Assembly: GCA_963717285.1 (NCBI GenBank)
Contig: CAVQVW010000004.1
Location: 710,905-774,904, forward strand
Length of the DNA: 64,000 nucleotides
Source: an uncultured Thermoleophilia bacterium
Lineage (GTDB): Bacteria; Actinomycetota; Thermoleophilia; UBA2241
Reading direction: 5' to 3'
Shown: positions 3,877-21,373 of the stretch, piece after piece
Layout: each line of letters starts with the position of its first letter
Numbering within the stretch: position 1 is the stretch's first letter
The notes under the pieces: generated by a model
The model's database searches: none
Told to the model about the DNA's origin: nothing
Seen by the model: only the letters and a program-made list of their open reading frames with translations
Program-made: the position numbers and the translations under genes

Positions 3877-6009
3877 TCAGCCGATGATCACGATGCCCAG
3901 GTAGCCGTCCACGGTCACCCGGTCGCCGCTGCGGATGAGCTCGGTGGCGCGAGGCACACCGGTGACGCACGGCAGGCCATATTCGCGTGCGATGATCGCG
4001 CCGTGGATGAGCATGCCGCCGCGGCGCTCCACGATGCCGGCGGCCAGCGGCACGATGGAGGTCATCTCGGGAGCGATGGCATCGCAGACGAGGATTTCGC
4101 CGTCGGCGAATGTCGTGAGATCCTCCCGGCCCTCGATGACCCGGGCCGTGCCGACGGCCAGGCCCGGGCCGGCGGGCTGCCCGACGATCTGGCGCGCCTG
4201 AGCGCGCAGGCCGGCGGGCGCGGCCTGCCCGGCGGCCGCCAGTCCGGATCCCGTGGGCCCCACCGTCCCTGCCTGCTCAGCGCCCAGTGGCGAAGGCAGC
4301 GTGACCTCCCGCGGGCGCAGGTGCTCGTCGATCGGGAGACCGCGGCGCTCCGCCTCCTCGAGAGCGGCAACGAGGAGACGCTCGAGACGGTCGAGGTACA
4401 GGTTGTCGTCATCACGCAGTCGCCAGCTCGCGCGACCCAGGTCGAGCAGCTCGGCCGCTCGCTGCCGCTCGGCCTCCGGATACGCCTCGATGAAGCGCCG
4501 GGCGCGGTCCGCAGGGTCGGGGCGCGTCACTGCCCTCGCTGCCGGACGCGCCGCGAGCCGCCGGGCGACCTGCAGCACCTCGGCGCGAGCCTCGCCGCCC
4601 TCGCGGGCGGCATCGCCGAACTCCGCCAGGTACTCATCCAGCGCCCGTGCCGCGGCCTTCTCCTCCCCGCCGCGCAACTGCGCGGCCACCTGTTCCAGTG
4701 CTGCGTTGCGCCGCAGGCTGATCATGGGGGTGCCTGCAAGCAGTTCGGTGAACTCGTATGGATCCTCGGGGTGCAGCACGTCGTTGTAGGCGGCTCCGAA
4801 GAGGCGGGCACCGTGCGCGAACGGGATGAAGTCGGCGGTGTAGACATCCACGCCGCGGTCGTGGGCGGCCTTGCGCTCCTGTAGGGCCGCACGCAGGCTG
4901 GCGTCGTCCAGACCCTCGAGTGACGCGGCCTCAAGGCGGTCGGCGGCGGCCGCGAGTCCCGGCAGGTCCTCGTCCTCGATGCGGCGGCGCAGCCTTTGCA
5001 GGCTTTCGAAGCTGCGCCGCAGGCTGAGGTACGTGGAGCGTCCGTCGCCGGCCTCGCCACCCAGCGTGGTGATCGGGCGCGACTGGAGCGCGTACAGATC
5101 GTCGCGCCGCAGCGTCCATTCCACGTCTTGCGGCGCCTGGAAGTGGCACTCCGCGTGCCGCGCGAGACCGTGGACGCGAGGCACCTCATCGGCCGCCAGC
5201 GGAGCCCTGCCTTGACGGTCGCGAGGCAGTGGCACGAGATGCACGCCGTCTGCTTGCTCCGTGATCATCTCCCGACGCTCCACGGACCGATGCTCCAGGA
5301 TGGCACCGTCGCGCCGGTCCACGGTCCAGCGGTCGGGCTCGACGACGCCGTCCACGAGGCCCTGGTTCAAGCCATGGACGGCCTCGACCACAGCGCGCGC
5401 GTCGTCGTCCGGATGACGGCTGAAGGCGACTCCTGAGCGCTCGCCCGAGACGATCTCCTGTACGACGACCGCCATCACGCTGCGCGTGGGATCGAGCCCG
5501 AGCTCGCGGCGGTACAGCAGCGCCGCGTCGGACCAGAGTGACGCCCACACGAGCTTGACGTGTTCGAGGACGGCGTCCGACCCTCGCACGTTCACATACG
5601 ACTCGTGCAGCCCGGCGAACGAGGCGCCGGCAGAGTCCTCCCCCGGCGCCGACGAGCGCACCACGGTGGCCCTCCCCGCGAAGCGCGCGGCGAGCGGCTG
5701 CGCCAGCGCCGCGCGCAGCTCCTCCGGCAGCGGCGTGGTCAGGAAGAGGCTGCGGATGCGCAGCGCCGCGTCCCATAGCTCCTCCCAGCGCATGTCCGCG
5801 AAGTCCTTGCGCTCCAGCTCGAAGAGGATGCGCGCCCGCAACTTCGAGGCATCCAGGTAGGCCTCGTAGGCATCGGTGGCGATGGCCACGAATGCCGGCA
5901 CGGCGATACCAGCGCGTGCCATGTGCGCCAGCGAGAGGGCCTTGCCGCCCACGCGTTCGGCGACGCTCTCGTCGATCTCTTCCTGAGGAAGAACGAAGCC
6001 GGGGCGCAT
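3877..6009 (-). CDS. PEP-utilizing enzyme family protein (pyruvate-phosphate-dikinase-like ATP-grasp N-domain plus C-terminal mobile His domain; PEP synthase / rifampicin-phosphotransferase-like)
   Basis: N-terminal GGKALSLAHMARAGIAVP (PPDK_N) and C-terminal GGMLIHGAIIAREYGLPCVTG motifs. The start is placed at the MRPGFVLPQ methionine. Confidence 0.75.
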   Translation of the reverse strand: MRPGFVLPQEEIDESVAERVGGKALSLAHMARAGIAVPAFVAIATDAYEAYLDASKLRARILFELERKDFADMRWEELWDAALRIRSLFLTTPLPEELRAALAQPLAARFAGRATVVRSSAPGEDSAGASFAGLHESYVNVRGSDAVLEHVKLVWASLWSDAALLYRRELGLDPTRSVMAVVVQEIVSGERSGVAFSRHPDDDARAVVEAVHGLNQGLVDGVVEPDRWTVDRRDGAILEHRSVERREMITEQADGVHLVPLPRDRQGRAPLAADEVPRVHGLARHAECHFQAPQDVEWTLRRDDLYALQSRPITTLGGEAGDGRSTYLSLRRSFESLQRLRRRIEDEDLPGLAAAADRLEAASLEGLDDASLRAALQERKAAHDRGVDVYTADFIPFAHGARLFGAAYNDVLHPEDPYEFTELLAGTPMISLRRNAALEQVAAQLRGGEEKAAARALDEYLAEFGDAAREGGEARAEVLQVARRLAARPAARAVTRPDPADRARRFIEAYPEAERQRAAELLDLGRASWRLRDDDNLYLDRLERLLVAALEEAERRGLPIDEHLRPREVTLPSPLGAEQAGTVGPTGSGLAAAGQAAPAGLRAQARQIVGQPAGPGLAVGTARVIEGREDLTTFADGEILVCDAIAPEMTSIVPLAAGIVERRGGMLIHGAIIAREYGLPCVTGVPRATELIRSGDRVTVDGYLGIVIIG

Positions 6010-6016
6010 GGTCGCG

Positions 6017-6466
6017 CTACGGGAGGTGCAGTTCGGTGACATTCTGGAAGCGGCTGACGATGTAGTACGTCTCGACGGTAAGCTCGACCAGCGCACTGGA
6101 GGGTGCACTCGCAAACGGCTTCAGGTGCGGATGCCTCGCAAGAAAGGCGGTGAGCTGCACGGCGCGCTCTTCGCCCTCGAGCTCGCGCGCCGTGCCGACC
6201 GCCGTCGCGGCGACGGTGCCATGAAAGTCGAGGTCCTCGTCCGAACGACTGTCGACGAGCATCGCCACCCGCGGCTCGGCACTCAGAAAGCCGAACTTGC
6301 GGGTGGCACGCGGCGTACTGAAGTAGAGGTGCGCGAGATCCTCCGAGGCGCGCACCGCCACCAGGCTCGCGTAGGGATGTTCGGGTCCGTGGGTAGCTAG
6401 CACGCCGAGGCGTTGCCTCGCGAAGAGTTCGCGCAGCAGCTCAAGAGGCTCGGCACAGGTGTCCAT
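6017..6466 (-). CDS. pyridoxamine 5'-phosphate oxidase family protein (general-stress-protein-26-like)
   Basis: 149-aa ORF with a PNPOx-like FMN-binding split-barrel signature. It is tightly coupled to the upstream gene. Confidence 0.55.
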   Translation of the reverse strand: MDTCAEPLELLRELFARQRLGVLATHGPEHPYASLVAVRASEDLAHLYFSTPRATRKFGFLSAEPRVAMLVDSRSDEDLDFHGTVAATAVGTARELEGEERAVQLTAFLARHPHLKPFASAPSSALVELTVETYYIVSRFQNVTELHLP

Positions 6467-6962
6467 GGCTGCGCTCTACCCAACCCCGCGGCAAGGCGAA
6501 CCAGCCGGGACGCGATAGTCTCGATCGCGACGCCCGCGCGAGCGACCACCGCCCACTGAGGAACGATACACATGAAGAAGATCGGCATCGTCACCCGCGC
6601 AATTGCAGGGGTTTGTCTGTTCCTATGGATACCGACGACCCCGCTCTGCAGCCCGCCCGCAATCCTTTTTGCAGCCGAACGCAGCGTCAGGCAGCGATTC
6701 TGAGCGGCATTCGCCGGCACTGGGCGGCACTACGGCCTGAGATCCGCACACCGCACCGGGGCAGCGCCCGCCGGCCCCGAGACGATCGGCTTCCCGGACT
6801 CCGACTTCGCCCCGCCGAAACCTATGCCGGAGGTGGCTCAGGGACCAACACAAGAAGTGGACCGACGAATGGGATCCGGTCAGATCTGCACCCCTGGAGT
6901 CGGTCCACCTGCAGTGTCGGGTCTCTCGACGGGTGAAGGAGGCAGATCATTCCGAGGACCTC

Positions 6963-7265
6963 CCACGTGTTCCTCCTGCAACCCTCCTGCAACCGCACCT
7001 AGCGTCATTGGGTGGCACTCAATGTCACTAGGTAGCAGATCGACGCGATTCTCTACGCGTAGAACGGCACTCCCTGGCACTTGGCGGCACTACCTGACAC
7101 CATTTCTACAGCCCTCTCACGGCGGTAACACGGGTTCGAATCCCGTATGCGCTACCACCCCATTTCAGGTTCAAATGCAGGGGTTTTGCGTACTCCCGAG
7201 GATTCCGACGACCCCTTCTGCAACCCGTGTGCAGCCCTCCTGCAACCGAACCTGGCGTCACTTGA
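6963..7265 (+). repeat. Composite A-C-A repeat element: A iteron module (6963-6997), GGCAC 10-bp repeats, tRNA-3'-half-like C core (7092-7166), second A module (7226-7262)
   Basis: Near-identical copies occur at 58515-58810, 61805-61995, 38195-39900 (interrupted by an insertion sequence) and 19025-19410. The core ends GGTTCGAATCCCGTATGCGCTACCA. Confidence 0.8.
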
Positions 7266-7369
7266 TGGCTCTCGCTGTCACTCGGCGGCAGATCGACTCG
7301 GTTCTTCACGCTCGGAGAGGCACTGGGCGGCACCCAGCAACATGTGCTGACAGACTCGCGCTCGGCTAG

Positions 7370-8422
7370 TCAACTCCTGTCCGCCCCTAGACTCCTGAGC
7401 ATGTGGCCTGCACGGCGTCGTGCCTGCCAGTAGACGTCCGGCGCTTGGCGGCGTGCGACCTGCCACTCCTCGTCCAGCGACCAGAGCCGGGATCGCTGGT
7501 TCGGATAGACCGAGAGGGGAGTGGCGCGATGCGGTCTCGCTCCCAAGCGGGACTTGAACTCCTCGTTGCCCCAGAGCAGGTTGAAACTCCGGAAGCCTCG
7601 GGAGATCGCGTCACAGACGTCCCAGTAGATTGCGAGCAGCGACAACCCGTAGCGGTCAAAGCCAGGCTGCACCGCCGCCTGCTGGGCACACACGCTAGTC
7701 CCCACCGGGAAGTTGAACGAGAGCGCCGCCATCTCACCGTCGATTGATGTCAGGCGAATCTCCCCCCGGCGTCTCAGCAGAGCCTGGAGGTTGCGGGCAA
7801 CCTGCGGATGGGTCTCCCAATACGTCTGCTTCCCCCGTGCATGGAAGCTGGCTTCCTTCCACTGCACCAGCTGCCTGAGCAATGCGGGCGCCCTCTCGTC
7901 GACGGGCATGGTCTTCGTTGCCACCTCACTGAAGTCCCGCCTCAGTCGATTCTGATAGCTGCGCAGGTGCCTGCTCCTGCCGAGCGATGCGGCGTACTCC
8001 TCCTCGGTCTCGGGCAGCTCTATCACCATGTGATCGGTGTGGTGGAGCACCCTCGAAGGGAGAGCCAGTGTCGAGGGCGCAAACATCACCTCGAAGTGGA
8101 TGCGGCGCACGTGCGGAAAGGCGCGGAAGAGCGCTTGGCCGGCGCGCCTTGCGTCTTCTGGGGCGATGTCGAACGTCTTGTTGAGGATTTCGACGGTCGC
8201 GCCCTTGCCCGTGAAGAGCAGCACATGGCGAGGCTTCTCCAGGATGCACGCTCCCATCCATTCGGGCATGTCATGGGTCTCGAACCAGTCGACAGTCGCG
8301 AACAAGCTCGAATAGAGTCCGTCGAGCTCGGCAGCATAACGACTCGGGTCGACTCGGGGGTGGACCCTTGCGCCAAGATCGGCGAAGAGGAACGGGCCAG
8401 GCCGACTAGCGGACCCAGACAT
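7370..8422 (-). CDS. GNAT-fold N-acetyltransferase (CelD/BcsL / Acetyltransf_6-like)
   Basis: 350-aa ORF with a ...LLWGNEEFKSRLGARP motif. An intact reading frame. A frameshifted copy lies at 60509-61690. Confidence 0.55.
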   Translation of the reverse strand: MSGSASRPGPFLFADLGARVHPRVDPSRYAAELDGLYSSLFATVDWFETHDMPEWMGACILEKPRHVLLFTGKGATVEILNKTFDIAPEDARRAGQALFRAFPHVRRIHFEVMFAPSTLALPSRVLHHTDHMVIELPETEEEYAASLGRSRHLRSYQNRLRRDFSEVATKTMPVDERAPALLRQLVQWKEASFHARGKQTYWETHPQVARNLQALLRRRGEIRLTSIDGEMAALSFNFPVGTSVCAQQAAVQPGFDRYGLSLLAIYWDVCDAISRGFRSFNLLWGNEEFKSRLGARPHRATPLSVYPNQRSRLWSLDEEWQVARRQAPDVYWQARRRAGHMLRSLGADRS

Positions 8423-8555
8423 CAGGCGGTCGCGTCTTCGTTGTTGTCTCGCGCATGGACTCACACTCGGCGCGAGGCGAGCGCCCCGTCGAGCCGTGCG
8501 CGAATCCCATGCGCAGTAGGGCCGGTCTCGGACGAATGCCTCGCATGCTGGCATA

Positions 8556-9069
8556 CTACCCGACGATCGGCCTCACCGGGCACCGTTCATCGGTCCTCTT
8601 CCCACGATAGTCCCAGAGCCACCTCCGGCATAGGTTTCGGCGGCCCGTGGTCAGCGAGCGAGAAGCGGGGAAGGCGATTGTCTCCGGTACCAGCGGGCGT
8701 TGCCCCAGCCAGCTGTGCGGGCGCAGACTGTTGTAGAGCCGGCGCCAGTCGGCGATCAGGATCTGCGCCTCCTTGAGCATGGAGAAGATCTCACCGTTCA
8801 GAAGCTCGTCGCGCAGCTTGTCGACGAACGACTCGATGCTAGCCGTTATCCCAAGGTTGGGCCGGCTCGATTAACCGGCTGGTGACGCCGAGCACGCTCA
8901 ACCACTCCCCGACGGCTCTGGCCACGAACTCGGGTCCGTCTTCCGATCTGATGTGCTCGGGGATGCCGTACTGAAGGAAGAGGTCGGAGAGCGTCATCAG
9001 CACCTCGTGGCTTCTGATGCGGCGCGCCACGCTGATCGCCAGGCATTCGCGCGTGTACTCATCGACCAC
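8556..9069 (-). pseudogene. IS3/IS481-family transposase C-terminal fragment (rve integrase core), interrupted
   Basis: ...DGPEFVARAV...PWDNG then ASIESFVDKLRDELLNGEIF...WRRLYNSLRPHS. An internal stop/frameshift separates the two parts. A B-module inverted repeat follows at 8573-8642. Confidence 0.7.
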
Positions 9070-9094
9070 GGTGAGCAGCTTCAGCGGGCGCCCG

Positions 9095-9232
9095 TCGTGG
9101 GTGTGACCTGCACCCCTGGCATCGGTCCACCCTCGGGGCGGTGGATCTCGCGAGGCATCCTCTGGCTCCTTGATCGGTCGCGAAACCCTGCAGTGAAGCT
9201 GGGCCGATTTCAGGAGCGCAGGTCATGAGTAG
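9095..9232. repeat. Inverted pair of D modules (MITE-like, roughly 135 bp) with TGACCTGCACCCCTG...TCGGTCC termini
   Basis: D' at the left and D at the right in inverted orientation. Single D copies occur at 3140-3175, 6880-6935, 10255-10300, 34095-34165 and 45565-45640. Confidence 0.6.
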
Positions 9233-10030
9233 TCCCGACCGCAGGAGCCCGGCAAGCTGTAGTTCGTAGAACTCGGCGTGCCCATGCTTCAGGTAGCGCG
9301 ACGACGCGTAGCGGGCCAGCCGCAGAACGGGCAGGCCGGCCACCTCGGGCTCGTGCTCGCAGTCCCCGTCACCGCAGTCGAGAGCGTGTGCGAAGCTGTC
9401 GAAGAAGCCGGGCAGCATGGCGTCGATGTCATAGCCCACCTTGAGGACCTTGGGCTCCGGGAAGGTGATTGGTGCCTCCACCCCGGCGATGCGCACCGTC
9501 TCGTACGGGTAGTAGCGCTTCACGAAGTGGCGGGTGCGACGCACGGCGACGACGTCGAGGATGTCGAAGAGCTTATCGGGCGAGAGATCGTCGGGGTCGA
9601 GCGCCATCGCCTCGCCGAAGTGCTGCTTCAGCGAGCGGATGCCTACATGGGCGAAGGCCGCATCGTTGCGGATGAAGTAGCTGAGCAGGCAGTAGAGGTC
9701 CCAGATCGAGTTGTTCACCGGGGTCGCAGTCAGGAGCACGAGGTCCTTGGGCGGCGAGCCTTCGAGCGGGCGGCGTAGCACCGAGGCCCGAAGCGCGTCC
9801 GGGTTCCGGTACGCCTGCGCCTCGTCGATCACGATCATCGCATACTCGTCCTTGTCGAAGACAAGGTGGTCGCCGTCGCCGTCGGGGTTGAGCTGGCGGT
9901 CCTTGGACAGTCCCTCGTAGGAGAGGTTCTTCACACCGAGCTGCTCGCGCTCGAGGAACGCCTTCCACAGGCCGTCACGCAACACAGCGGGGCTGACGAG
10001 CAGTACGCGCTGGCGGCGCCTAACGAGCAC
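9230..10030 (-). pseudogene. SNF2-family helicase fragment (motifs Ia-III only; both ends missing)
   Basis: RVLLVSPAVLRDGLW, DEAQAYRN (DEAH box) and LLTATPVNNS are present. Walker A and the C-terminal helicase lobe are absent. The ORF's N-terminal extension is repeat-derived. Confidence 0.6.
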
Positions 10031-10254
10031 ACCGAGTCGCTCAAGAGGGCCTCGATCTTCTACTACTACGGCGGCACGCAGCCGTTGCGGGCGGGGCTGG
10101 ATCCGGCGTACGCGGTCGTGCTGCTCGCCGTCGCGGCAGTCCTGATCGCGGTGTCCTTCCCACTCTTCCAGCGCAGGGATGTGCGCGAGAAGGACTAGGC
10201 GCCACCACGTCGGAGAAGCCGTCGCGCGGCTTCGGCTGCCTCCTGGTGCCGGGG

Positions 10255-10720
10255 TCATCTGCGCTGACCTGCACCCCTGGAATCGGTCCAGGCTGGACTG
10301 TGGCTCTCCGGCCGATGACGGACGGTGGGGACGTGTGGGCTCCTCCGATATGTCCCGTCTGCAACCCTCCTGCAACCGAACGCAGCGTCACGCGACGGCG
10401 GCATCCAGTATGGCCGAGCCGGCCGCCACACTTGAGAGGCCGACATCGTTGTGGATATCGAAGAACTCGGAACGGCGTCGAGCGCGACTGCGCGACGACG
10501 GCGACCTCCTTCCCGGCCATCGCCATGGTGACGGCCAGGTTGCACACCAACGTGGTCTTGCCCGCCTGTGCTCGCGCAGGTCACTTGACGACGTCCGTCG
10601 GGGGCTGAGGCGATCGTCTTCCCCGGCTTCTCACTCTCCGACTTCTCCCCGCCGGGACCTGTGCGGGAGGTGGCCCTGGGACTAACATAGGCAGTGGACC
10701 GACGAACGGGGTCCGGTCAG
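10255..10720 (+). mobile_element. Non-autonomous IS-derived element: D' left end, A iteron module (10355-10395), internal ParA/MinD-like ATPase fragment (10430-10570, minus strand), B right end (10650-10720)
   Basis: The module order D'-A-cargo-B matches the shorter A-B copies. The internal fragment reads RAQAGKTTLVCNLAVTMAMAGKEVAVV (deviant Walker A). Confidence 0.5.
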
Positions 10721-10856
10721 CCGCCACAAGGGTGCACGACGTCGACGCTGCTCGCATCATATCTGGCTGCCTGCCGATCGAGATCCCGCCTAGCTGTGAC
10801 GGCCTCCGGTCACGACGCGGCTTTGCCGCAGCGGGACCGAGCGGGAGAATAGGCTC

Positions 10857-11606
10857 GTGAACCCAGTGCTTCCTACATGGGGTGCCAACGTGGCTGTGAT
10901 CGTCGCCGGCTCGCTGCTGGTCGGTTGTGGTGCAGCAGGCGATGGGCCCTCCGCAACGCCATCTCTCCACGGCTCGCCGAAGCCGTCGGGCGCCAGCGCT
11001 GACGGAACGGGTGCCCTTGTCGTCTTCGACGGCGACTCCCTTACCGTCGGCTACCGGATCGGCTCTCGGGAAAGCTACCCCAGCCAGGTTGCGCAGAGCC
11101 TCCCGGAAGGCACATCCACACTCAACGTCGCCGTTTCGGGCCAGACATGGCCGGACCTATCGGCCGACGCCGTCGAAGAAGTGGATGCCCAGTACTCGGT
11201 CGACCGCCCGGCCAATGTCGTGGTCGTATGGGCGGCAGCCAACGACCTGGCGACGGGCTACACGGCGAAGGAGGTTGCCCACAACGCTCGCGACTACTGC
11301 GCTCAGCGCCGCCGGCACGGCTTCGCGGTCGTCCTCCTGACTATGTATCCACTGCAGCCAAGAGGCATCGACGCCGACTACGAGCGCGAGAGGCGCGCCT
11401 ACAACGAGCTGCTGCGCGCCGGGTGGCACGAATACGCTGACGCCCTCGTCGACGTAGCAGCCGACAGCCGTCTCGGCGGCGAGTCGGGACAAGATCGCTC
11501 GCGGTACTTCCTCGACCCCGTCCACCTGAACGCGGCGGGCTACCGGGTCGTCGCCGAACTAGTGGCTCAAGTCCTGCGGCCGCTCATCGGAAGTCCGGCG
11601 CAGTGA
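10857..11606 (+). CDS. SGNH/GDSL hydrolase family lipoprotein
   Basis: Signal peptide with lipobox LVGC, GDSL motif VVFDGDSLTVG, and catalytic DPVHLNAAG. Confidence 0.7.
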   Translation: MNPVLPTWGANVAVIVAGSLLVGCGAAGDGPSATPSLHGSPKPSGASADGTGALVVFDGDSLTVGYRIGSRESYPSQVAQSLPEGTSTLNVAVSGQTWPDLSADAVEEVDAQYSVDRPANVVVVWAAANDLATGYTAKEVAHNARDYCAQRRRHGFAVVLLTMYPLQPRGIDADYERERRAYNELLRAGWHEYADALVDVAADSRLGGESGQDRSRYFLDPVHLNAAGYRVVAELVAQVLRPLIGSPAQ

Positions 11607-12039
11607 TCGTAGTCAACCCTCCTGAGTTGTATCCCCTTCGGGGCGTCGGCACGACGCTCTGCGAAGTGCCCAAGCAGCGCCTGTGCCGACTTCTCAGAGC
11701 AGCACCCCATACCGACTACCCGGACTAGCGTCAGCCCTTGTCGACCTCCGCCGTGCATGTGCGTCGCAGTAGCCCTCACGAACAGGGAAACCGACGTTCC
11801 GAGCGTGGAATCGGCTGGCCGGCGACACGCCCACGCTCAATCCTGAGAGGAATGACTTCGCGAAGAAGCGTCACTTGTGGTCTGAGGATGCTCAGAGGCA
11901 GCACCCACGGCACCGGGAGCATAGGGTCGGGCGAAAGCCTCAGCCAGGGCTAGACCATCCGGGCTCGCGATACTTCCGCGGAGCAGTAGAGTGGCACGCC
12001 CCGGGTTCCGCGTCGGCTGAGTTACTTGGGAACCAAGCT

Positions 12040-12200
12040 TCCTGAGGCTTGCTGATTGTACTGCTCGAGCACCTGCAGCGGCGTTTGCCGTCTCATCTGC
12101 CCGTTGCTCGTTCGCGGACCGCTGTCGGAGTGCGCGACGAGCCCTTCGTCGCGCTCGTAGCGGGCGGACAGCGCCATGTCGAAAGCACCGATGTCCTTCC
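12040..12200 (-). pseudogene. degenerate rve-type transposase fragment
   Basis: Minus-strand translation ...GLVAHSDSGPRTSN... resembles the IS3 OrfB catalytic region. There is no intact ORF. Confidence 0.25.
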
Positions 12201-12502
12201 GCCAGGATCAGGTGACCCTGGAAACGGAGCCCCCGTCTAGCCTAGGCCGCGCTCAGAATGGGAAGTAGTCCTCGCTCGATTCAGAGCCGATGAGCGTCTA
12301 GGGGCTTCGACTTCCGTCGATGCGTGACGTGGCCGTCATGTCGCGGCTACGTGCGACCGCCTACACACCGGCGAGCAGGCGGATGCCCGCCTCTCGATTC
12401 ATCCGACGGCACACGGGGAACCTCTGGGGTGCGGGAACGTCCTCTTCTTGGGAGGCGCGACCCCGGCCGGCCCTCACCCCCGATGCGAAGGAGTCTCCAT
12501 CC

Positions 12503-13711
12503 ATGGACATCGTGAACCGCGCAACCATTGTCCGTCTGGCCGCCGTCAGCGGCTGGCCGTCGGTTTCGATCTACCTCCCGACGCATCACCGCCCCACCCA
12601 GGCAGAACCGGACCGCATCCGCCTGCGCAATCTCGTGAGCGAGGCACGACAGGCGTTGATCGCGGGCAGACTGCGCGACACGGACGCCGATGCGCTGCTC
12701 GCACGCGTCTCGACCCTCTCAACGACCAAGGATCTGTGGAGCGGTGGTTTCGAGGGGCTCGCGATCTTCGTGACGGCGGATGGGACGGAAGTCCTGCGCG
12801 TGGACACGCCGATGCCGGAGAGAGCCGTCGTGGGCGACCGCCGCTACCTGCGCCCGCTGTTCGCCGTCTACCACCGCGACATGCACTTCTGGGCGCTCGC
12901 GCTCGACAAGAACGGTGTGCGGCTCGTGCGCGGCGACCGCACCTCCGTCGGGGAGGTCTCGCTACCCGCCGGCACGCCCGTCAGGCTCGAGGACGAGACG
13001 AAGTACGACATACACGACGTGGCCCTCCGGTTCCAGACGATTCCGGGCGTCGGCCCCGAGCAGGGCCGCGGCGTCGCTCAGTACCATGGGCACGGCGGCG
13101 AGAAGGATGCCGACAAGGTGAGCCTCCTGCAGTTCATCTCCGACGTCGCCCGCGGCGTCACCACCGTCATCGGCGCACAGTCCACCGAGCCGCTCGTGGT
13201 ACTCGGCGTCGACTACATCGTCGACGCCTACCGCGGGGTGGCGTCGTACGCGGGCATCGTTTCCGAACGGCTCGATGGTGCGACGGGACACCTGAGCGCC
13301 ACCGAGATCCGTGACCGGGCGCTGACGGCGCTCACCGCCCGTATCGCGACGACAACCGAGGCCGACATCGCCGAACTCGCGGAGAAGACGGGCACCGGAT
13401 TCACGTCCGCTGATCCGGCCGAGGTGTTCGCAGCCGCGGCGGCCGGACGCGTCAAGACGCTCTTCATGGATGGCGGGGCGGGCCCATGGGGGACGGTCGA
13501 TCGCTCCACACTCGTGGTGAGCACCGTGTGTGACGGCCAGCCGACCTACCTGCGCGACCCGGCCGCACCCGAGGGAGTCGACGAAGCGCAGTGCGGCTGG
13601 GACCTCGTGGACCTCGCCGCGGTCGAGACGATCACGCACGGCGGCACCGTACACGCATTTGCCGATGAGGGATCGCCGGTATCGGGAGTCGCGGCAGTCT
13701 TCCGCTACTGA
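12503..13711 (+). CDS. hypothetical protein, possibly baeRF (bacterial eRF1-like, Rv2629-like) family
   Basis: 402 aa with an AAGGAG ribosome-binding site 10 nt upstream of the ATG. The family call is tentative: Asp-rich with a conserved HFWALALD...VRLVRG segment. Confidence 0.4.
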   Translation: MDIVNRATIVRLAAVSGWPSVSIYLPTHHRPTQAEPDRIRLRNLVSEARQALIAGRLRDTDADALLARVSTLSTTKDLWSGGFEGLAIFVTADGTEVLRVDTPMPERAVVGDRRYLRPLFAVYHRDMHFWALALDKNGVRLVRGDRTSVGEVSLPAGTPVRLEDETKYDIHDVALRFQTIPGVGPEQGRGVAQYHGHGGEKDADKVSLLQFISDVARGVTTVIGAQSTEPLVVLGVDYIVDAYRGVASYAGIVSERLDGATGHLSATEIRDRALTALTARIATTTEADIAELAEKTGTGFTSADPAEVFAAAAAGRVKTLFMDGGAGPWGTVDRSTLVVSTVCDGQPTYLRDPAAPEGVDEAQCGWDLVDLAAVETITHGGTVHAFADEGSPVSGVAAVFRY

Positions 13712-14078
13712 AGTGAGCGCCGGCGACGTGACCCGACCCCATTCGTTGGTCCACTTCCCATGTTAGTCCTATGGCACACTCCGGCACGACCCCACAAGCG
13801 GTGGACCGAGCAGCGGGTCCAGTCAACGTCATGTGATCCCCTTCTCTCGAGCGGGCACACACGCCGTAGGGCGAGTTCGACCGCTTGATGCGCCTGTGCG
13901 TGCCTGCGCACAGGGCGATCTCCACACGCCTCCCCGTCTGCCGCGCGGGCAACGGGAAACAGTGGGGCTGCGACCGGTCTCTGTCGATGCTTGTCGCAGG
14001 AGTCCATGAAGGGGCATGCGGCCGAGTTGCCCCGAGAGCCGTGTTGCCCCGGACACGAGCGACGGGGGTGCGCTTCTC

Positions 14079-15133
14079 ATGAGACCCAACCTGCCCAGAC
14101 GCCTGCTTCTGATCACCGCCATCGCCTCGCTGACGCTGCTCGTTGCGGCCACGCCGGCGTTCGCCGGCTGGTCGGTGCAGCAGCTGACCGACAACACCCG
14201 TAACGACCGCAACCCCCGCATCGACCAGGGCCAGGTCGTCCGGTCCAGTGGCTATGGCAACTCGAACGCCGCGAACTACATCTACCTCTACGACATCAAT
14301 CAGGGCGGTCCGGTCGACCAGCTAAGCAGCAACGGCCCTACGATGAGTCACCCCAGATCGACGGGGGCTGGGTGGTCTGGAGTGCGTACGCTAGCGGCGG
14401 AACCGGAGACATCGATGTCTACGCCACCCGCAGCATCCCGGGAAGCCTGATCGTCAATCTGAGCAACAGCAGCGGCGCCTACTACCCCCAGATCGACGGG
14501 GGACAGGTGGTCTGGACGAGATCAGTCTGGCAGGGCTCGTTCGGGTACCCGCAGGTCTTCCTCTACGACCTCAACCAGGGCGGTTGGGTCGTGCAGCTGA
14601 CCAACGGCACCACCAGCAACACCAGGCCTCAGATCGACCAGGGCCAGGTGGTCTGGACGGAGCAAGATGGTCAGGACCACGCGGTCAACCTCTACGACCT
14701 CAACCAGGGCGGCCCGGTCGTGCAGCTGGCCGCGACCACGACCCCCATCCACGGCCTCCAGATCGACGACGGCCAGGTGGTCTGGTACTGCTCCGACGGG
14801 CAGGACAGCGAGATCTACTTCGCAGTCTACAAGGACGCGAACCAGCAGATCGGTGAAGTCGAGGACTTCTTCGACGAAGCTGTGGCCGATGGGACCCTGC
14901 TGGGCAGCGGGCCGGGAAGATCTGCCGCGGGGCGGCTCGGTGCTTTGGACAACATGCTGGCGCAGGTCGAAGCCTACATAGAGCAGGGCGACACCGCCGC
15001 CGCCGTCAAGCTGCAGAGGGTCTACGATCGCTGCGACGGGCAAGCCCGCCCACCGGACTTCGTGGGCGGGTCGGCGGCCTCTGAGCTGGCCAGTCTCGTG
15101 CAGGAGTTCATCGACGAGCTGAGCGCGATGTAG
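14079..15133 (+). CDS. secreted repeat protein (tandem ~45-aa PQIDGGQVVW / LYDLNQGG beta-propeller-like repeats) with a C-terminal helical domain; frameshift near 14370
   Basis: Signal peptide MRPNLPRRLLLITAIASLTLLVAATPAFA. Repeats are seen in both overlapping ORFs (14016-14450 and 14372-15133). Confidence 0.5.
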
Positions 15134-15344
15134 CAGAGTGCGTCGGAAGAGCCGGGCTCAGGAGTGACGGAGGCCCTTCGGGGCCTCCGTTCTCGTCCGT
15201 CTCCCCAGCGATTGCCACCCCCGTCACCTGAGCGGGATGACCATGCGCCGCCCGTCGCGGCGAAGCTCCGCGCAAACGCCTTCGCCTCGGCTTCGGCCAG
15301 GCAGACGGACAAGGCGACTTCCGAGCATTCCGCCGACCCCTCTC

Positions 15345-15515
15345 TGCAACCCGTCTGCAACCCTCCTGCAACCGAACCTGGCGTCACGGGATGGTGCTGG
15401 GCGGTGGTCGCTGGCATTTCGCGGCACATAGACGCGCCCTCCGACTTCGCCCTCCGGTACGTACGCGGAAGGTGGCTCTGGGACCAACATGAGAAGTGGA
15501 CCGACGAATGGGGTC
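15345..15515 (+). repeat. A-B MITE-like element (about 170 bp)
   Basis: A module CTGCAACCCTCCTGCAACCGAACCTGGCGTCAC and B terminus ...GGACCGACGAATGGGGTCCGG. Sister copies lie at 16400-16566 and 25058-25292. Confidence 0.75.
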
Positions 15516-15684
15516 CGGGCCACGTCCCGGCCAGTGGGACCGTCTCCGACTGCGGCGCTACGTGCGTCTCGGAACGCGAGAGCGCAGACCTGCGTGGAGC
15601 GGTCTCCGATCTTGCGAGCGCGTTTCCGGACGGCTGATTCAGGAAAGGCCAAGGGCGGGATCTGCCATCTAGTCGGAGGGTGTC

Positions 15685-16368
15685 ATGGCCGCCAGCAGGA
15701 AGTGGAGCGAGCTCAGCAGCCGCAGCCGCAAGCTGATCGTCGGCACCGGAGTCGTGGAGGCCACGCTGCTGTTGGCGACCCTCATCGACCTCAGGCGTCG
15801 CCCCGCAGATCAGGTGAACGGTTCGAAGCGGATGTGGACTGCGCTGGCCTTCGTCGACATCATCGGGCCGATCGCGTACTTCTCCCTGGGGCGGCGGCGA
15901 GGTGCCAGCGACATGAGCGCGACTACCACTATCGGAAGGCCTCCCGATGAGGTCTTCGCCTACCTTTCTGATGTCGGCAACGATGTGAACTGGCGTACCG
16001 GGATCGTCGACTCTGGGCTGCGGTCTGACGGGCCCGCCGGAGTGGGCTCCGTTGGGTACGCTCGCACTGGGAAGACCGAGGCCGTCTACCGGATGACCGC
16101 GCTCGAGCCGCCCTCACGCGTTGACTGGGAGTTCGTCGAAGGCCCACTCAGCGGGCGAGGTGGCTATCGACTTGAGCCTGCCGAGAACGGTACGCGATTC
16201 ACGCTGGCCGCCGATGTCCGGCCATCTGGCCCGATGAAGCTACTGGGGCCCGTCTTCACGTGGATGGTGCGTCGCTGGAATCGCTCTGACGTCGAGGCTC
16301 TGCGGACCATCCTTGAGTCTGGGACGGGCTCGTCGGGCAGCCAGAGTAGCACCGAACCAGCGGACTGA
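15685..16368 (+). CDS. fusion protein: PLDc_N-like N-terminal membrane domain plus SRPBCC (Bet v1/polyketide-cyclase-like) domain
   Basis: WTALAFVDIIGPIAYFSLGRR motif, then an SRPBCC-like PPDEVFAYLSDVGN...W...YRLEP region. Confidence 0.5.
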   Translation: MAASRKWSELSSRSRKLIVGTGVVEATLLLATLIDLRRRPADQVNGSKRMWTALAFVDIIGPIAYFSLGRRRGASDMSATTTIGRPPDEVFAYLSDVGNDVNWRTGIVDSGLRSDGPAGVGSVGYARTGKTEAVYRMTALEPPSRVDWEFVEGPLSGRGGYRLEPAENGTRFTLAADVRPSGPMKLLGPVFTWMVRRWNRSDVEALRTILESGTGSSGSQSSTEPAD

Positions 16369-16399
16369 GCAGGCGCGCCCGAGCGCCGGATGATCCCTT

Positions 16400-16566
16400 T
16401 GTGCCGCCCTCCCGCAACCGAACCTAGCGTCACACGTTGGTGCTGGGCGGTACTCGCTGGGACTGCTCGGGACAACGGCGAGCTTCACGACGAGGTCGCT
16501 GGCACCTATGCGGGGGGTGGCCCTCCGACCAACATGCGAAGTGGACCGACGAATGGGGTCCGGTCA
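16400..16566 (+). repeat. A-B MITE-like element
   Basis: Same module order and termini as 15345-15515. Confidence 0.7.
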
Positions 16567-17526
16567 GCCCGCGAAGTGCGCCTCGAAGAGGGTCGAGAGC
16601 GGTCTCCATCCGACCGCCTGCGGTGAGGCCAGGTGGAGGTGCCTGGCGGACTTGAGCACCAGCGCAATCGGGACGGCGAGCGAGGTGCGGTGCAGTGTCC
16701 GCGGGTGTGTCGTCGTTGCCAGGGTGATTCCGATCACGCGGCCGTCGATGTTGGCCAGCGGCCCTCCCGAGAACCCGGGCTTCGTGTCTGCCGATGTGAC
16801 TATCAGCTCTCTGATCTCATCGAGACCGGTGACCGTGACTCGTCGCAGGACCTTGACGACCACGCCTTCGGCAATCGGCTCCTCGAAATGCTGAGGGGCG
16901 CCCACGGCGAAGACTGGCGTTCCGGGCTGGACCGACGTGAGATCGCTCTCGATTGGCGCAGGCACAAGGTCATCCAGAGTCGTACGCAGAAAGGCGAGAT
17001 CACAGTCGGGATCTTGGGCCACGACGGTCACCTCGTCTTGGCGGCCTTCCGCGTCGTAGACCGTGATGAAGTCCGCAGGTTCGTCTCCGCCAAGGGTGGC
17101 GACGTGGTTGCTGGTCACGATCAGCCCATCATCGCTGAGAACCACTCCGGTGCCGATCATGCCTCGTACCGGGCCTCTGTCGGGCTCAACCGTGACGAGG
17201 ATGCCGACGGTGGGGTGCAGTACGCGTTCGGCAGAAACCGGAGACGAGGGTGTGCTCGGACCGTCGCGGACGTCTGTGCTGGTGGCCGAGCAGCCACCCG
17301 CGAGAGCGACGAGCATGATGAGGAGGGGCCACACAGCTAGCGCCCACCCCGGAATGGGAGGTCCAGGCCCTCTCGTGCGTGGCGACGCGTCCGCCCGTGG
17401 GCTGGACGACCCGGCGCCATTCGACCCAGGTCGTCTTGTCGGCGGGCTGGGAGCTGACCCGGTGAACACCCGGGAGACGGACGCACTCGCGCCGGGAGAC
17501 ACTGCGGCGACAGGTCGCGGGTGCAT
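16564..17526 (-). CDS. trypsin-like serine peptidase (S1/HtrA-like), probable lipoprotein; start uncertain
   Basis: GTGVVLSDDGLIVTSNHV and TKPGFSGGPL catalytic motifs. A LAGGC lipobox lies after a hydrophobic segment. Confidence 0.6.
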   Translation of the reverse strand: MHPRPVAAVSPGASASVSRVFTGSAPSPPTRRPGSNGAGSSSPRADASPRTRGPGPPIPGWALAVWPLLIMLVALAGGCSATSTDVRDGPSTPSSPVSAERVLHPTVGILVTVEPDRGPVRGMIGTGVVLSDDGLIVTSNHVATLGGDEPADFITVYDAEGRQDEVTVVAQDPDCDLAFLRTTLDDLVPAPIESDLTSVQPGTPVFAVGAPQHFEEPIAEGVVVKVLRRVTVTGLDEIRELIVTSADTKPGFSGGPLANIDGRVIGITLATTTHPRTLHRTSLAVPIALVLKSARHLHLASPQAVGWRPLSTLFEAHFAG

Positions 17527-17704
17527 GGTATCGTGATACCCGCACGAGAATGGCTCCAAGCCGTCGGCGCAGATGGACGTGCTACGCGAGGCCGGCGCAT
17601 ACGGGATTGCTCTGGCTCCTGCATGTCCGGTCGCGCTCTTGGGTAGATAGAGTGCCCGGCCCCGTCGGAGGTGCGGACGAACACCGATGCGAAAGTGAGG
17701 GACG

Positions 17705-17860
17705 ATGCCGACCTGCAACGAGATGAAGACGGGCGAGACCTACGAGTGCGAGAGCTGCGGCCTGGAACTCACGGTCGCCGTGTCGTGCGCGGACAAGGGT
17801 GGCTGCTCGTGCTCGGAGCCCTTCGCCTGCTGCGGCAAGCCGCTCACCCGCAAAACGTAG
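17705..17860 (+). CDS. small Cys-rich protein (51 aa, 10 Cys), MymT-like bacterial metallothionein candidate
   Basis: ...CESCGLE...CSCSEPFACCGKPL resembles the CxHxxCxC...CCGxP pattern of MymT. Translationally coupled to the downstream ferredoxin. Confidence 0.35.
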   Translation: MPTCNEMKTGETYECESCGLELTVAVSCADKGGCSCSEPFACCGKPLTRKT

Positions 17861-17872
17861 AGGAGGCAGACT

Positions 17873-18064
17873 GTGACTGTTCCTGTGGTCGACCCCGATC
17901 TCTGTACGGGTTGTGGCGTGTGCGAAGAGCTCTGCCCAACAGTCTTCGAGCTCGGCGAGGATGGGCTGGCCCACGTCATCGCTGGCTCCGACTGCGATAC
18001 GGCGGGGTGCTGTGAGGAAGCCGCTGAGTCCTGTCCGGACGAGGCGATCTCGCTCGGAAGCTGA
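17873..18064 (+). CDS. ferredoxin (single [3Fe-4S]/[4Fe-4S] cluster)
   Basis: CTGCGVCEELCP...CP motif. GAGGAGG ribosome-binding site before a GTG start. Confidence 0.7.
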   Translation: MTVPVVDPDLCTGCGVCEELCPTVFELGEDGLAHVIAGSDCDTAGCCEEAAESCPDEAISLGS

Positions 18065-18098
18065 CGGCCGGACCGGTTGACTCCCCAAACGACGGGGG

Positions 18099-18363
18099 CT
18101 ATGAGCCGAGGCGGCCGTCCAGCTCCCCGCTGGCGCTCAGATCGGCCAGGTCGTCATAGCCGCCCGCGCTTCGGCCGTCGATGAACAGCTGGGGCACGGT
18201 CCGGCGGCCTGAGCGCTCCACCATCTCTCGCTGCTTGGCTCCGTCATGCGTCACGTCGATCTCGCGGTAGGCGAGACCCTTCGACTCAAGGAGTGTCCTG
18301 GCCTTGGCACTGTAGGGGCACCACGCCTTCGTGTAGATCACGATGTCGGTCACGGATCTCCTC
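18099..18363 (-). CDS. glutaredoxin (GrxC-like)
   Basis: VIYTKAWCPYSAKA...TVPQLFIDG motif. AAGGAGG ribosome-binding site before a GTG start. Confidence 0.7.
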
Positions 18364-18666
18364 CTTTGCGAGGTGGATGCTCTGAAGACGACCATACCCG
18401 CTTTTCGACTGCCGCCAAGCACCGCTTCCCGTCCGCTCCCATCCAGTCGCACGCATCTGGGTTGCAGTATGGTCGCAACCGGGCCTACCGGAGGTGCGCA
18501 CGCAGCGCTGTCCAGTGCCGCGCGCTGCCAGCGCGTACCGTCCAGCACCATCCCGTGATGCTAGGTTCGGTTGCAGGAGGGCTGCAGACGGGCCCTCGCA
18601 CTCTCACAGGAAGCGGACCAACGAACGGGCAGGCAGTCTGCCGGCGTCTCCCTCCGATCTGTTCCT

Positions 18667-18852
18667 CTACGAATTCAGGAACCGCAGGAGGTCGTAGACG
18701 AGGAAGGCAGGCCACACCAACGCCTGAAGGAAACCGAGGACGCCGTCCCAGAACCCGGTCGCCGTCTGGATGTAGTAGACAACCGCGCCGATGAATCCCA
18801 GTCCGTAGACTGCACCTGTCCCGCAGGCTGCGTTCGCTGCTCCTCTCGCCAT
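18667..18852 (-). CDS. small membrane protein (61 aa), hypothetical
   Basis: Two hydrophobic helices plus GFWDGVLGFLQALVWPAF. Confidence 0.3.
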   Translation of the reverse strand: MARGAANAACGTGAVYGLGFIGAVVYYIQTATGFWDGVLGFLQALVWPAFLVYDLLRFLNS

Positions 18853-19024
18853 CTTCGCTCCCTCTGGTTCGGCTGCTCTCGGCCTTTCCTCACTGCTGCT
18901 CGCACGGGACCTCGTCTTGCCCCATGCGTCGCGACCCACTCGGGCATACATACCCGCATCCACGTCACCATGAGCACGGGACTTGTACCGCCCACCACCA
19001 GCGACTACCGCTCGGCACCGTCCC

Positions 19025-19410
19025 GTGACGCTGGGTTCGGTTGCAGGAGGGTTTCAGACGGGTTGCAGAGAGGGGTCAGCGGAATCCTCGGGAGCCCACA
19101 GAACCCCGTATTCACGCCTGAAGAGGGGTGGTAGCGAATACGGGACTCAGAACGTCAAGGCTCACTGGTGATTCGTACTGGATACCCAACCGATGTCGGA
19201 GGATTCTCCTGCATGAACGACGAGCGCTTGAGGGCCTATGGGGGCATTGCGGGACACCGGATGCGACACCTCTCAGCCTACACGGCTGCGAGGTTCAGAA
19301 CTCCATCCTGTCGACGATGTCGGAACCCTCAAGAACCATCTTTCCCACCAGCGCGTACCGCCCAGCACCATTGCGTGAAGCTAGGTCCGGTTGCAGGAGG
19401 GCTGAAAGCA
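19025..19410 (-). repeat. Partial A-C-A composite (A' modules at 19025-19070 and 19375-19410; only the last ~20 nt of the C core retained)
   Basis: Contains ...GGTGGTAGCGAATACGGGACTCAG plus a conserved AAACCCCTGCATTT-like spacer. Confidence 0.5.
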
Positions 19411-19463
19411 AGTTGCACACGAGCGCGTCAGGTTGAGCCGCGTGCTGGATCGTGCCGGCGACT

Positions 19464-20003
19464 TCAGCGCTTCCTCGGCATCCTCGGGACGATGAAGGGC
19501 ACCTCTCGCATGTAGGTCATGTAGTTCTCACCGAATCTCTCGGCGAGTTCCTTCTCTTCCACTCGCTTGAGGTAGAGGACGAGAAGCCCGCCGAAGACGA
19601 GCACGGAGGCGGCACCGACCACGGTCGCCGCGGCGATGCTCACGCCCAGGTACGCCAGGATCGTCCCAAGTGTCATGGGATTCCGGCAGTAGCGGAACGG
19701 GCCGCTCGTCAGCAGGTGCTGAGTCGGCAGCACCGGGAGGGGCGTGCCTCGGCCCCGAGTGACCTGTGCGGCTATGGACCAGAGCGCGAGAGCCATTCCA
19801 GCGGCGACGAGCATGGCCCCGATCATGAGAAACGCCGGCCCGGGCTTCAGACGGTCCAGGTGAAGCCGGCGATCCAGCCTGCGGCACACGACGATGATCA
19901 GATATGGCAGGAGCACGACGAAGAGGACGCCTGCGAGGATCAGAGCGACGATCCGCACGCCCGGGCTACGCTCCTTCTCTGCCCACCTCGTGAACTGCGA
20001 CAT
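19464..20003 (-). CDS. isoprenylcysteine carboxyl methyltransferase (ICMT/PEMT) family membrane methyltransferase
   Basis: LLTSGPFRYCRNPMTLG signature with multiple TM helices. Confidence 0.65.
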   Translation of the reverse strand: MSQFTRWAEKERSPGVRIVALILAGVLFVVLLPYLIIVVCRRLDRRLHLDRLKPGPAFLMIGAMLVAAGMALALWSIAAQVTRGRGTPLPVLPTQHLLTSGPFRYCRNPMTLGTILAYLGVSIAAATVVGAASVLVFGGLLVLYLKRVEEKELAERFGENYMTYMREVPFIVPRMPRKR

Positions 20004-20056
20004 GGGACCTGCAGGCCTCCGCCTCGCGCGACATCCTGCCGTCTCGGAAGAGGACT

Positions 20057-20662
20057 CTAGCACCGGGGAGCGTGTGTGTCATGGCGGTCTGCAGATGTGA
20101 GCTGGCCACGTTCCCGCAGTCCCATCCGCTCACACCTTGCCTCAGACTTGCCGATCCGGGCGCAGGCGTGCAGGTCACTCCGGGTCGTACGGCCAGCCCA
20201 GCTTGCACCCAGCCGCCGCCTAGTCTCCATCTCCAACGTGGTCGGAGTGTAGTCAAACGTGCTAAGCAGCTTCCCATGGTCGTCCACCGATGTCTGAGCC
20301 AGGTCCTGCGGGAAGGCGTTGAGGAGCTGAGCGAATCCCAGGATCGTGTGCGTGTAGTCCAGAGAACGTGAGAGCCTGACCAAGGGCCACGTCGCATGCC
20401 AGGCGATCCTCGGGAGGATCAGCGGAATCGGCGTGAAGCGGATCGTCCTGCCGTACACCGCCGACAGTCTCCTGGCCGCTTCGGGAAAAGAGAGGAGCTG
20501 CGGTCCGGCCAGCCGGATGCGTCGCCCGCCAAGGTCGTCGCGCAGGACCGCCTGCGCCGCGATCTCGCCCAGATCCGCTGGTGAGACAGTCGGGACAGCC
20601 TTTGGCCCCCCGCCAGGCACAACCATGCGGTCGCTACGTATCATCGCGAAGAAGATATCCAT
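20057..20662 (-). pseudogene. duplicated C-terminal half of the NmrA-like gene (tandem partial duplication)
   Basis: About 290 nt (20396-20690) are identical to 21667-21960, and the upstream part has diverged. The duplication unit is 1271 bp. Confidence 0.6.
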
Positions 20663-20722
20663 CGAAGGCGGGGCGCCGAGTACCGGTCGGAGAGGATGTC
20701 ACATGGCGCACCTGACGATCGT

Positions 20723-21373
20723 TCAGGCACCCTCGGCCGCCGAACGAGCGACACGTCTGGTCGGCGGTGCGAGCAAGCGGATCGCCTCGCTGACATACCA
20801 CGCGTACGCCATGCCGAACATCAGGCGCTGCAGGATGCCGTAGTAGCCGGGCATCACGGCCATGAACGGCGGCACAAGCAGCGCCGTCAGGAAGGCGATA
20901 CGGTCCAGCCACCGCACCCGGCCTCCAGTGCGCGAACGCTGAATGGCGGCCAGGGCGACGCCCACCATGAAGCCGATGCCCATCGCCGACGCGGCGACCG
21001 TGTGCAGGAGATCCTCGGTCGGGTCGAAGGGGGCGCTCTCCACCCATGGACGCGTGGAGAACGCAGCGGCAGCGATCATCCAGACGCCGAACCAGCGGTG
21101 CGCGATCGAGGCCCACCGGCCCCACCGGGGCAGCGCGACACCCGCCAGCCACAGAACCGCGAACCCGAAGAGCAGAAAGCCGAGGCGCGCCATCCACGCG
21201 CCCTCGACACCCTGCGCGGCTGACTCACTCGTCCCGTGGAGAAGAAGCGAGTAGGAGTCCGGCATCAGCGCCGGGGCGACGAGCAACGACGCGATCGAGG
21301 CGGCGAACGTGGCGATCACGAGTACCACCGTCCCCCGAGATACACCTGCTTGCGGGTTCTCAGTCATCGCCAC
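20723..21373 (-). CDS. DUF998-like membrane protein
   Basis: 216 aa with a LLHGTSESAAQGVEGAWMARLGF motif and 5-6 TM helices. Paralogous to 2470-3077. Confidence 0.5.
   Translation of the reverse strand: MAMTENPQAGVSRGTVVLVIATFAASIASLLVAPALMPDSYSLLLHGTSESAAQGVEGAWMARLGFLLFGFAVLWLAGVALPRWGRWASIAHRWFGVWMIAAAAFSTRPWVESAPFDPTEDLLHTVAASAMGIGFMVGVALAAIQRSRTGGRVRWLDRIAFLTALLVPPFMAVMPGYYGILQRLMFGMAYAWYVSEAIRLLAPPTRRVARSAAEGA

Follow-up and report, generated by a model that had tools for sequence, protein, structure and literature searches.

Chromosomal inversions occur between long inverted repeats, for example insertion sequence (IS) copies and rrn operons. Homology-facilitated illegitimate recombination, reportedly described by de Vries and Wackernagel in 2002, is said to combine one homologous anchor with one microhomology join. 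Assembly can also alter reading frames, as indel errors in Nanopore-only metagenome assemblies give artificial frameshifts (PMC9262707; PMC12313526). All three bear on a 64,000-nucleotide stretch from an uncultured Thermoleophilia bacterium (GenBank assembly GCA_963717285.1, contig CAVQVW010000004.1, positions 710,905 to 774,904), which we call the window. Near its two ends lie inverted arms that each hold a copy of a putative acetyltransferase gene, intact in arm 1 and frameshifted in arm 2. This feature is a real and ordinary repeat-associated inverted segmental duplication, a phenomenon of known kind. Taken as a whole, the locus is best explained, with a probability that we consider high, by a fairly recent inverted duplication of about 1.5 kb that probably arose through exchange between repeats at one end and an illegitimate join at the other, the frameshifts of copy 2 reflecting poor consensus sequence.

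The inverted duplication and its independent support

Comparing the window with itself by blastn pairs positions 7084-8737 (arm 1) with the reverse complement of 60326-61987 (arm 2) at 96.3% identity over 1672-1674 columns, with 24-27 gap opens and E = 0. A repeat search of the window finds three gap-free inverted blocks between the arms, of 484, 362 and 263 nt, each 99-100% identical. The arms lie 51,588 nt apart. An earlier reading of this DNA, made from its sequence only, had described an inverted duplication bracketing about 51.5 kb, and both blastn and the alignment of the arms agree with it, the spacing being 51.6 kb. The arm limits it gave were roughly right but 30-50 nt too wide, as collinearity ends at 7084 rather than 7035 and at 60326 rather than 60296. 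Its order of contents also holds: a C module, an A module, the acetyltransferase gene, a transposase tail and a B module. The modules are dispersed repeats of the window, placed here with hidden Markov models (HMMs) built from their copies. In a base-by-base alignment the arms differ at 62 columns, with 51 in 7084-7630, mostly indels of 1-3 nt, and 11 in 7630-8737. The arms thus form a long inverted repeat in the sense of opposite orientation, more than 1 kb in length and more than 90% identity (96.3% raw, 99.07% in the core defined below).

The locus of copy 2 could be compared with a contig from a different population that carries about 0.6% substitutions (L004; ENA ERZ25039603 contig_78267). 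Positions 1-4424 of L004 are collinear with 59559-64000 of the window, across a defence-gene fragment, arm 2, a unique spacer, an IS256-like element and the next gene. A second, independent assembly therefore contains the locus of copy 2 together with both junctions. Against the L004 version of copy 2, copy 1 is 99-100% identical in each 100-nt bin from 8737 to 7238. Over this core the identity is 99.07%, with 14 differences in 1500 positions and a longest identical run of 233 nt, compared with only ~85% between 7237 and 7084. Because identity falls from 99-100% to ~85% at 7237, the recent duplication comprises only about 1.5 kb (7238-8737). The outer 155 nt of the arms are two different A-C repeat copies, at the similarity usual within that family.

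Metagenome assembly of a repeat-rich region, with a block of poor quality next to arm 2, might lead one to suspect that one arm is an artefact of a collapsed or chimeric contig. We regard this as extremely unlikely. L004 independently spans arm 2 and both its flanks, and a short-read contig (L001) crosses the outer junction of arm 1 (5785-7341, 99.7%, no gaps). The 3.7-kb segment around arm 1 is supported at each end by contigs from other samples, paralogue-specific substitutions separate the two copies, and the rve_3 transposase domain is continuous across 8737, the inner limit of arm 1.

Gene copies and the indel-dense block

The copy 1 acetyltransferase gene (7370-8422, minus strand) is intact and encodes 350 aa, as the sequence-only reading had stated, and its product is identical to database protein P0001, which comes from a contig of 777,044 bp. 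Exact matching of the copy 1 protein, of P0001 and of the copy 2 fragment P0049 led to no contig. It belongs by HMM match to PF13480 (Acetyltransf_6, CelD/BcsL-like), with 50.7 bits against a cut-off of 22 and E = 2.8e-13 over residues 198-335 of a 394-aa open reading frame (ORF). The same domain is present in 49 of the 49 homologues with precomputed domains. Beyond the species group, identity to the nearest relatives is no more than 53-60%, homologues in this range carry the JGI name 'CelD/BcsL family acetyltransferase involved in cellulose biosynthesis', and a search of NCBIfam gave no match for the protein. An acetyltransferase activity or a role in polysaccharide modification is suggested only by these source-given names and by a nearby glycosyltransferase cluster, and should be read as putative.

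Copy 2 (60641-61694, plus strand), as given in this assembly, has 12 indel events in its coding sequence (CDS), in keeping with the at least four frameshifts noted before. Its orthologue in L004 is intact: protein P0051 (350 aa), a member of the P0001 cluster, is identical to the copy 1 product at 345 of 350 residues. Five synonymous and five non-synonymous changes separate the two genes, giving a pN/pS of 0.32, which does not look like the record of a gene freed from selection.

A three-way alignment sorts the differences between the copies. The substitutions that distinguish copy 1 are common to window copy 2 and L004, and are true paralogue differences. The indels are nearly all private to window copy 2; at nearly every such site L004 matches copy 1, and its frame is open. 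From 59559 to 61430 the window and L004 differ by 12 substitutions and 4 indel events, and from 61430 to 64000, a block of at least 2.6 kb, by 41 substitutions and 58 indel positions (about 48 events). As a baseline, the window and a conspecific contig (L008; ENA ERZ25039600 contig_57075) differ by 84 substitutions and 9 indel events over 16.3 kb. The indel density of the block is about 30 times this baseline, and its ratio of indels to substitutions is about 1.2:1 compared with 1:9 elsewhere. Its indels are 1-3 nt long, run in both directions and are distributed evenly across coding and non-coding sequence. The block sets in abruptly in the middle of the gene (~61430), crosses the A-C repeats and the spacer, and reaches the end of the window, disrupting the acetyltransferase gene in its 3' half and a DUF2202 gene at its start. 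Within it, an IS256/Mutator-like transposase gene (62113-63359, plus strand) is in at least four frame pieces in the window versus two in L004.

We consider it very probable, from this comparison of sequences, that copy 2 only appears decayed, because the consensus is poor over a local block. That the indels are private to the window assembly is a direct result of the alignment; sequencing error is probably their cause, and the organism itself most likely has two intact gene copies. One related-species genome in the GTDB set is named 'uncultured Thermoleophilia bacterium MFD03804.bin.2.198'. It belongs to a catalogue built purely from Nanopore data, using Flye and a single round of Medaka, in which the authors looked for Nanopore errors (PMC12313526). 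Two further related contigs bear names in the style of Flye and neighbouring ENA analysis numbers. Low depth, a mixture of strains or mis-mapping of repeats may have caused the local drop in quality. A GC3 frame plot was too noisy to map the frameshifts, because codon usage is atypical over much of the window.

It is improbable, in our view, that copy 2 is instead a true pseudogene of this strain, a redundant copy that gathered frameshifts together with its surroundings after the duplication. The 12 indel events in the CDS as given, a region rich in gene fragments and IS remnants, and the fact that L004 is not the same strain would all fit such a history. However, the disruptions of a pseudogene should be reproducible in an independent assembly, and L004, with the same flanks and an intact orthologue, lacks the frameshifts. 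Decay should also leave more substitutions than small indels and be limited to the dispensable gene. The block has the reverse ratio, and its short indels in both directions affect coding and non-coding DNA alike, from an abrupt start in mid-gene to the end of the window. The pN/pS of 0.32 between the intact copies likewise speaks against relaxed selection.

The sequence-only reading had taken the contrast between an intact and a broken arm as proof of 'real decay rather than uniform sequencing error'. This does not hold against the intact copy 2 of L004 and the private, clustered indels of the block; since errors can cluster and need not be uniform, the contrast does not show decay. Because the decay of one arm is probably an assembly artefact, it gives no warrant for the window's other frameshifts, and any called in 61430-64000 are suspect. 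More generally, errors in long-read metagenome assemblies can concentrate in blocks, and a pair of intact and frameshifted copies is no proof of pseudogenisation. Should both copies work, the organism would possess a nearly identical pair of genes of a kind associated with polysaccharide synthesis, one of them close to a polysaccharide cluster. That cluster (45588-58330, minus strand) ends ~2 kb from copy 2 and includes epimerase/dehydratases, GT4/GT1 and GT2 glycosyltransferases and an Fe-S/GMC-type oxidoreductase.

Repeats, junctions and origin of the duplication

The window holds 15 copies of the B module (for example 28579-28705, 37996-38122 and 43500-43627), 19 of A and 7 of C (for example 38242-38339 and 58566-58664). 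They form composite units in both orientations, ordered B, A and sometimes then C, in which B corresponds to the terminal ~128 nt of an IS3-family element. Units of these types also occur in L004, L006 and L008, and none surround the gene in the related-species locus L005. In the arms, the B modules lie at 8574-8699 (plus) and 60364-60489 (minus). The module has a sharp start, TGACCGGACCCC...TCGGTCC, and codes for ...PPAPETIVWPGFS at its inner end. The partner terminus reads ...GGACCGA...GGTGCAGGTCA, and the B copy of arm 1 is degenerate (TCACCGGG...). At the related locus L006, an 82%-similar gene with a B module at its end matches the NF033516 model (transpos_IS3) with 179.5 bits against a cut-off of 160. 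Since this IS3-type transposase gene ends in the module, B is, as judged from sequence, the right end of an IS3-family element.

The minus strand beside copy 1 carries an rve_3 tail (8556-8780) and part of an rve core (8839-9069). Together with the B module as right end, which has a TG... terminus and the C-terminal coding end, and an IRL-type terminus at 9226, they make up an IS3-family remnant (8574-9226, minus strand), an internally deleted copy that apparently retains both termini and in which the rve_3 tail is placed at 8694-8777. IS3 elements have terminal inverted repeats of the form TG...CA and a target duplication of 3-4 bp; at this remnant the terminus is degenerate and no target duplication was seen. 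The 8423-8573 region upstream of the gene (minus strand) was duplicated along with it. In L005 the gene is present as a single copy between a GGDEF/EAL gene and an acyl-CoA ligase gene, in repeat-free surroundings, and homology to that locus covers 7344-8573 and stops exactly at the IS3 terminus.

The A modules of the arms lie at 7219-7292 (minus) and 61777-61850 (plus), and their core contains three GGTTGCAG repeats at 11-nt spacing. Next to them are the C modules at 7119-7216 (minus) and 61851-61953 (plus), ~85% identical to each other and composed of a degenerate tRNA-Glu-like part and a hairpin. The Rfam tRNA model aligns to this tRNA-Glu(CUC)-like sequence over its full length, at a sub-threshold score (20.9 bits versus 29). 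Positions 7108-7158 (plus) match real tRNA-Glu genes at 88-92% over ~50 nt, and these tRNA-like 50 nt were the sole match in a plasmid search. Rfam at gathering thresholds found nothing in the window, and ARAGORN found no true tRNA there. Other C modules have the same layout, as at 58629-58698 (minus), where the tRNA-Glu-like part is followed by a hairpin and a T-run, and around 45060-45100 there is a further 3' fragment, resembling a tRNA of another type. Three like-oriented A-C units (repeat family D7; 18985-19160, 38156-38331 and 58481-58656) are spaced by 19.2 and 20.3 kb. This spacing could reflect successive insertions; no integrase was found among the window ORFs scanned.

The two ends of the duplication differ in kind. 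Its outer junction falls in the conserved core of the A module, where the high-identity stretch ends, with the first mismatch at 7234. Its inner boundary, 8737, lies inside rve_3 coding sequence, with the IS3 terminus (8574) within the arm itself. The rve_3 reading of copy 1, ...DWRRLYNSLRPHS..., passes 8737 without a break. In copy 2 and in L004 a defence-gene fragment precedes CTACAAC..., and only GCT (3 nt) is in common. The inner junction looks like an illegitimate join with microhomology inside the transposase gene, and not like an IS end.

The gene that abuts arm 2 (59027-60325, minus strand) is a 5'-truncated defence-type gene with an AlbA_2 domain and a weak GmrSD_C/HNH hit (GmrSD_C E = 0.0035). 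It covers only positions 362-594 of the 600 in the PADLOC HEC-05 model. A full-length GmrSD/HEC-05 protein has an N-terminal DUF262-type and a C-terminal DUF1524/HNH part, and here the N-terminal part is missing. Because the fragment matches only the last 40% of HEC-05, we infer that the gene lost its 5' part to the join itself or to a deletion with its end at that point. The loss of the 5' end of a GmrSD-like gene at the inner boundary had been recognized before, and the truncation stands, at 60326 rather than 60296. Its attribution to IS-mediated rearrangement does not, since the junction shows a 3-nt GCT microhomology inside the rve_3 coding region and no IS terminus.

For the same reason, a composite transposon or a one-ended IS3 transposition was rejected: the junctions lie in rve_3 coding sequence and in the A core, not at IS ends. 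No matching short direct repeats of a target-site duplication were found at 7083/8738 or 60325/61988. A longer duplication interrupted by the IS256-like insertion was also rejected, as the left flank of copy 1 has no counterpart beyond the IS.

The duplicated unit consists of the last ~160 nt of the IS3 remnant, the acetyltransferase gene with ~150 nt of upstream sequence, and part of an A repeat. We propose that its outer end was joined to an A-C repeat already in place, within the conserved core, through exchange between dispersed copies. The inner end would have been formed by the illegitimate 3-nt microhomology join within the transposase coding sequence, at which the 5' part of the defence gene was presumably lost. 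A larger duplication that was later trimmed by deletion would fit equally well. Metagenome scans with the acetyltransferase protein and with a 29-nt pattern of the inner junction found nothing.

Several points weigh against the account given here of the duplication and of copy 2. The divergence of copy 1 from copy 2 (0.9%) is near that between strains (0.5-0.6%), and is compatible with either locus as the source and with more than one order of events. The right junction of arm 1 (8737/8738) is documented by the window assembly alone. The attribution of the indels to error comes from comparing assemblies, and the Nanopore origin of the window's own contig is deduced from related records. L004 represents a different population (about 0.6% substitutions), with which strain-specific decay of copy 2 would formally be compatible, and it has one frameshift of its own in the IS256-like gene, so it too contains errors.

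The same repeats bound differences between strains. Arm 1 lies in a strain-variable segment of 3,701 nt (6667-10367), which also holds the IS3 remnant and a SNF2-helicase fragment, is bounded by the direct A-B repeats u06 and u10, and is absent from L008. Accordingly, a PNPOx gene and a GDSL-lipase gene are 563 nt apart in L008 versus 4.4 kb in the window. The ends of this 'filled' allele are confirmed by short-read contigs from three other samples (L001 and L003 on the left, L009 on the right), and the 'empty' allele (L008:9640-9707) is a clean u06/u10 hybrid. A third breakpoint is seen in a JGI contig (L011; 3300068095), which follows the window through a glycosyltransferase gene and a B-A unit to ~58583, the start of a C module, and then enters a sulfatase gene lacking in the window. 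We conclude that the dispersed repeats are general breakpoints between strains. Two further differences were noted. At 10400-10563, u10 contains a 164-nt insertion, missing in L008 and L009, with coding sequence for a ParA/MinD-like P-loop fragment (...CNLAVTMAMAGKEVAVV...). Across a direct repeat of 491 nt (20195-20685 and 21466-21956; 95%, no gaps), L008 aligns differently over 20244-20529, pointing to strains that differ in copy number or by a deletion.

The precision of some of these breakpoints raises the question of whether the A core (GGTTGCAGGAGGGTTGCAGACGGGTTGCAG), next to its tRNA-Glu-like module, acts as a target of site-specific recombination or marks one end of a mobile unit, at which segments are inserted, excised or copied. 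The acetyltransferase segment would then be cargo, and both arms and the 3.7-kb variable segment would be products of such a system. In the empty allele of L008, sequence of the u06 type gives way to the u10 type within 2-3 shared bases of the core, flanked on either side by mismatches specific to each type, and the outer end of the duplication falls 1-4 nt from that switch point. Several A copies lose family homology just past the core, and an IS110-family element sits within an A-like unit. Yet only two events point to the core, one of them bounded on a single side, and the L011 breakpoint is ~38 nt away, in the C module. The IS110 insertion point differs from the crossover, the inner junction is at no repeat, and no integrase was found among the window ORFs scanned or among the Pfam domains already annotated for the L004, L006 and L008 loci. 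We therefore think a dedicated site-specific system quite improbable and prefer exchange between dispersed repeat copies as the likely source of the outer junction.

The IS110-family element itself is intact (43635-~45030, with a 353-aa DEDD transposase at 43908-44969), lies inside a B/A-like unit and has GGTTGCA motifs on both flanks. Copies 99% identical to it occur in L004 and L006, the latter interrupted by an IS3 insertion. The idea that the A-core breakpoints arose from IS110 insertion or excision at that exact point was not supported, as the copy is about 20 nt away in its A-like unit, with ends that could be placed only approximately.

Elsewhere in the window, 38389-39627 (minus strand) encodes an intact IS256/Mutator-family transposase of 412 aa with a full-length Pfam match; its DNA is ~72% similar to the broken copy at 62.1-63.4 kb. 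A protein of the baeRF type (bacterial archaeo-eukaryotic release factor-like) is encoded at 12320-13711 (plus strand) in an ORF of 463 aa, compared with a gene of 402 aa called in L008. Finally, 42686-42835 consists of G-rich imperfect tandem repeats with an 18-nt period (GGCAGGGGCGAGGAGAAG...), which, if translated, would probably give a low-complexity stretch rich in Gly, Glu and Arg.

Inversion and comparison with known systems

The suggestion that the arms could mediate inversion of the DNA between them is sound as far as the substrate goes, since 99.1% identity over 1.5 kb with an identical run of 233 nt is adequate. Comparison of orientation in related genomes does not point to an inversion that took place. 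L008 lacks arm 1, and its left flank and the interior 10564-21774 have the same order and orientation as the window. L004 is collinear with the window through interior 59559-60325, arm 2 and the right flank. Because the flank and interior of L008 are collinear with it, the window carries the uninverted arrangement. The inverted isomer was not found in these two comparable assemblies, although a minority form would show up only in reads, and GC skew gave no inversion signal. From their sequence, the arms could serve as a passive recombination substrate for a potential 51.6-kb inversion. In the broader sense, the locus shows IS-derived dispersed repeats driving strain-level insertions, deletions, duplications and changes of context in an uncultured Thermoleophilia lineage.

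Set beside described systems, the gene resembles the CelD/BcsL-type GNAT acetyltransferases (PF13480) in its HMM match, in the names of its homologues and in the polysaccharide cluster near copy 2. It differs in that its nearest outside relatives are 53-60% identical and NCBIfam offers no match; its function is putative. The block in copy 2 resembles the frameshifts of Nanopore-only assemblies in being dominated by ORF-breaking indels of 1-3 nt, and the related genomes come from a catalogue made with Flye and one round of Medaka. Here, however, the errors stay within one block, 2.6 kb or more in length, and are neither contig-wide nor tied to long homopolymers.

The arms share with the IS and rrn repeats that support inversions a length of >1 kb, an identity of ~99%, an inverted orientation and a position flanking tens of kilobases, and their 233-nt identical run is far above the minimum for RecA recombination. 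Unlike those repeats, they consist of a gene with IS and repeat fragments rather than complete IS elements or rRNA operons, and the conspecific contigs are oriented as the window is, with no inverted isomer seen. The likeness to homology-facilitated illegitimate recombination lies in the junctions: the duplication ends in a shared A module on one side and in a 3-nt microhomology join with loss of recipient DNA on the other. The difference is that the process is deduced here from those junctions, which do not fix the donor, the direction or the number of steps.

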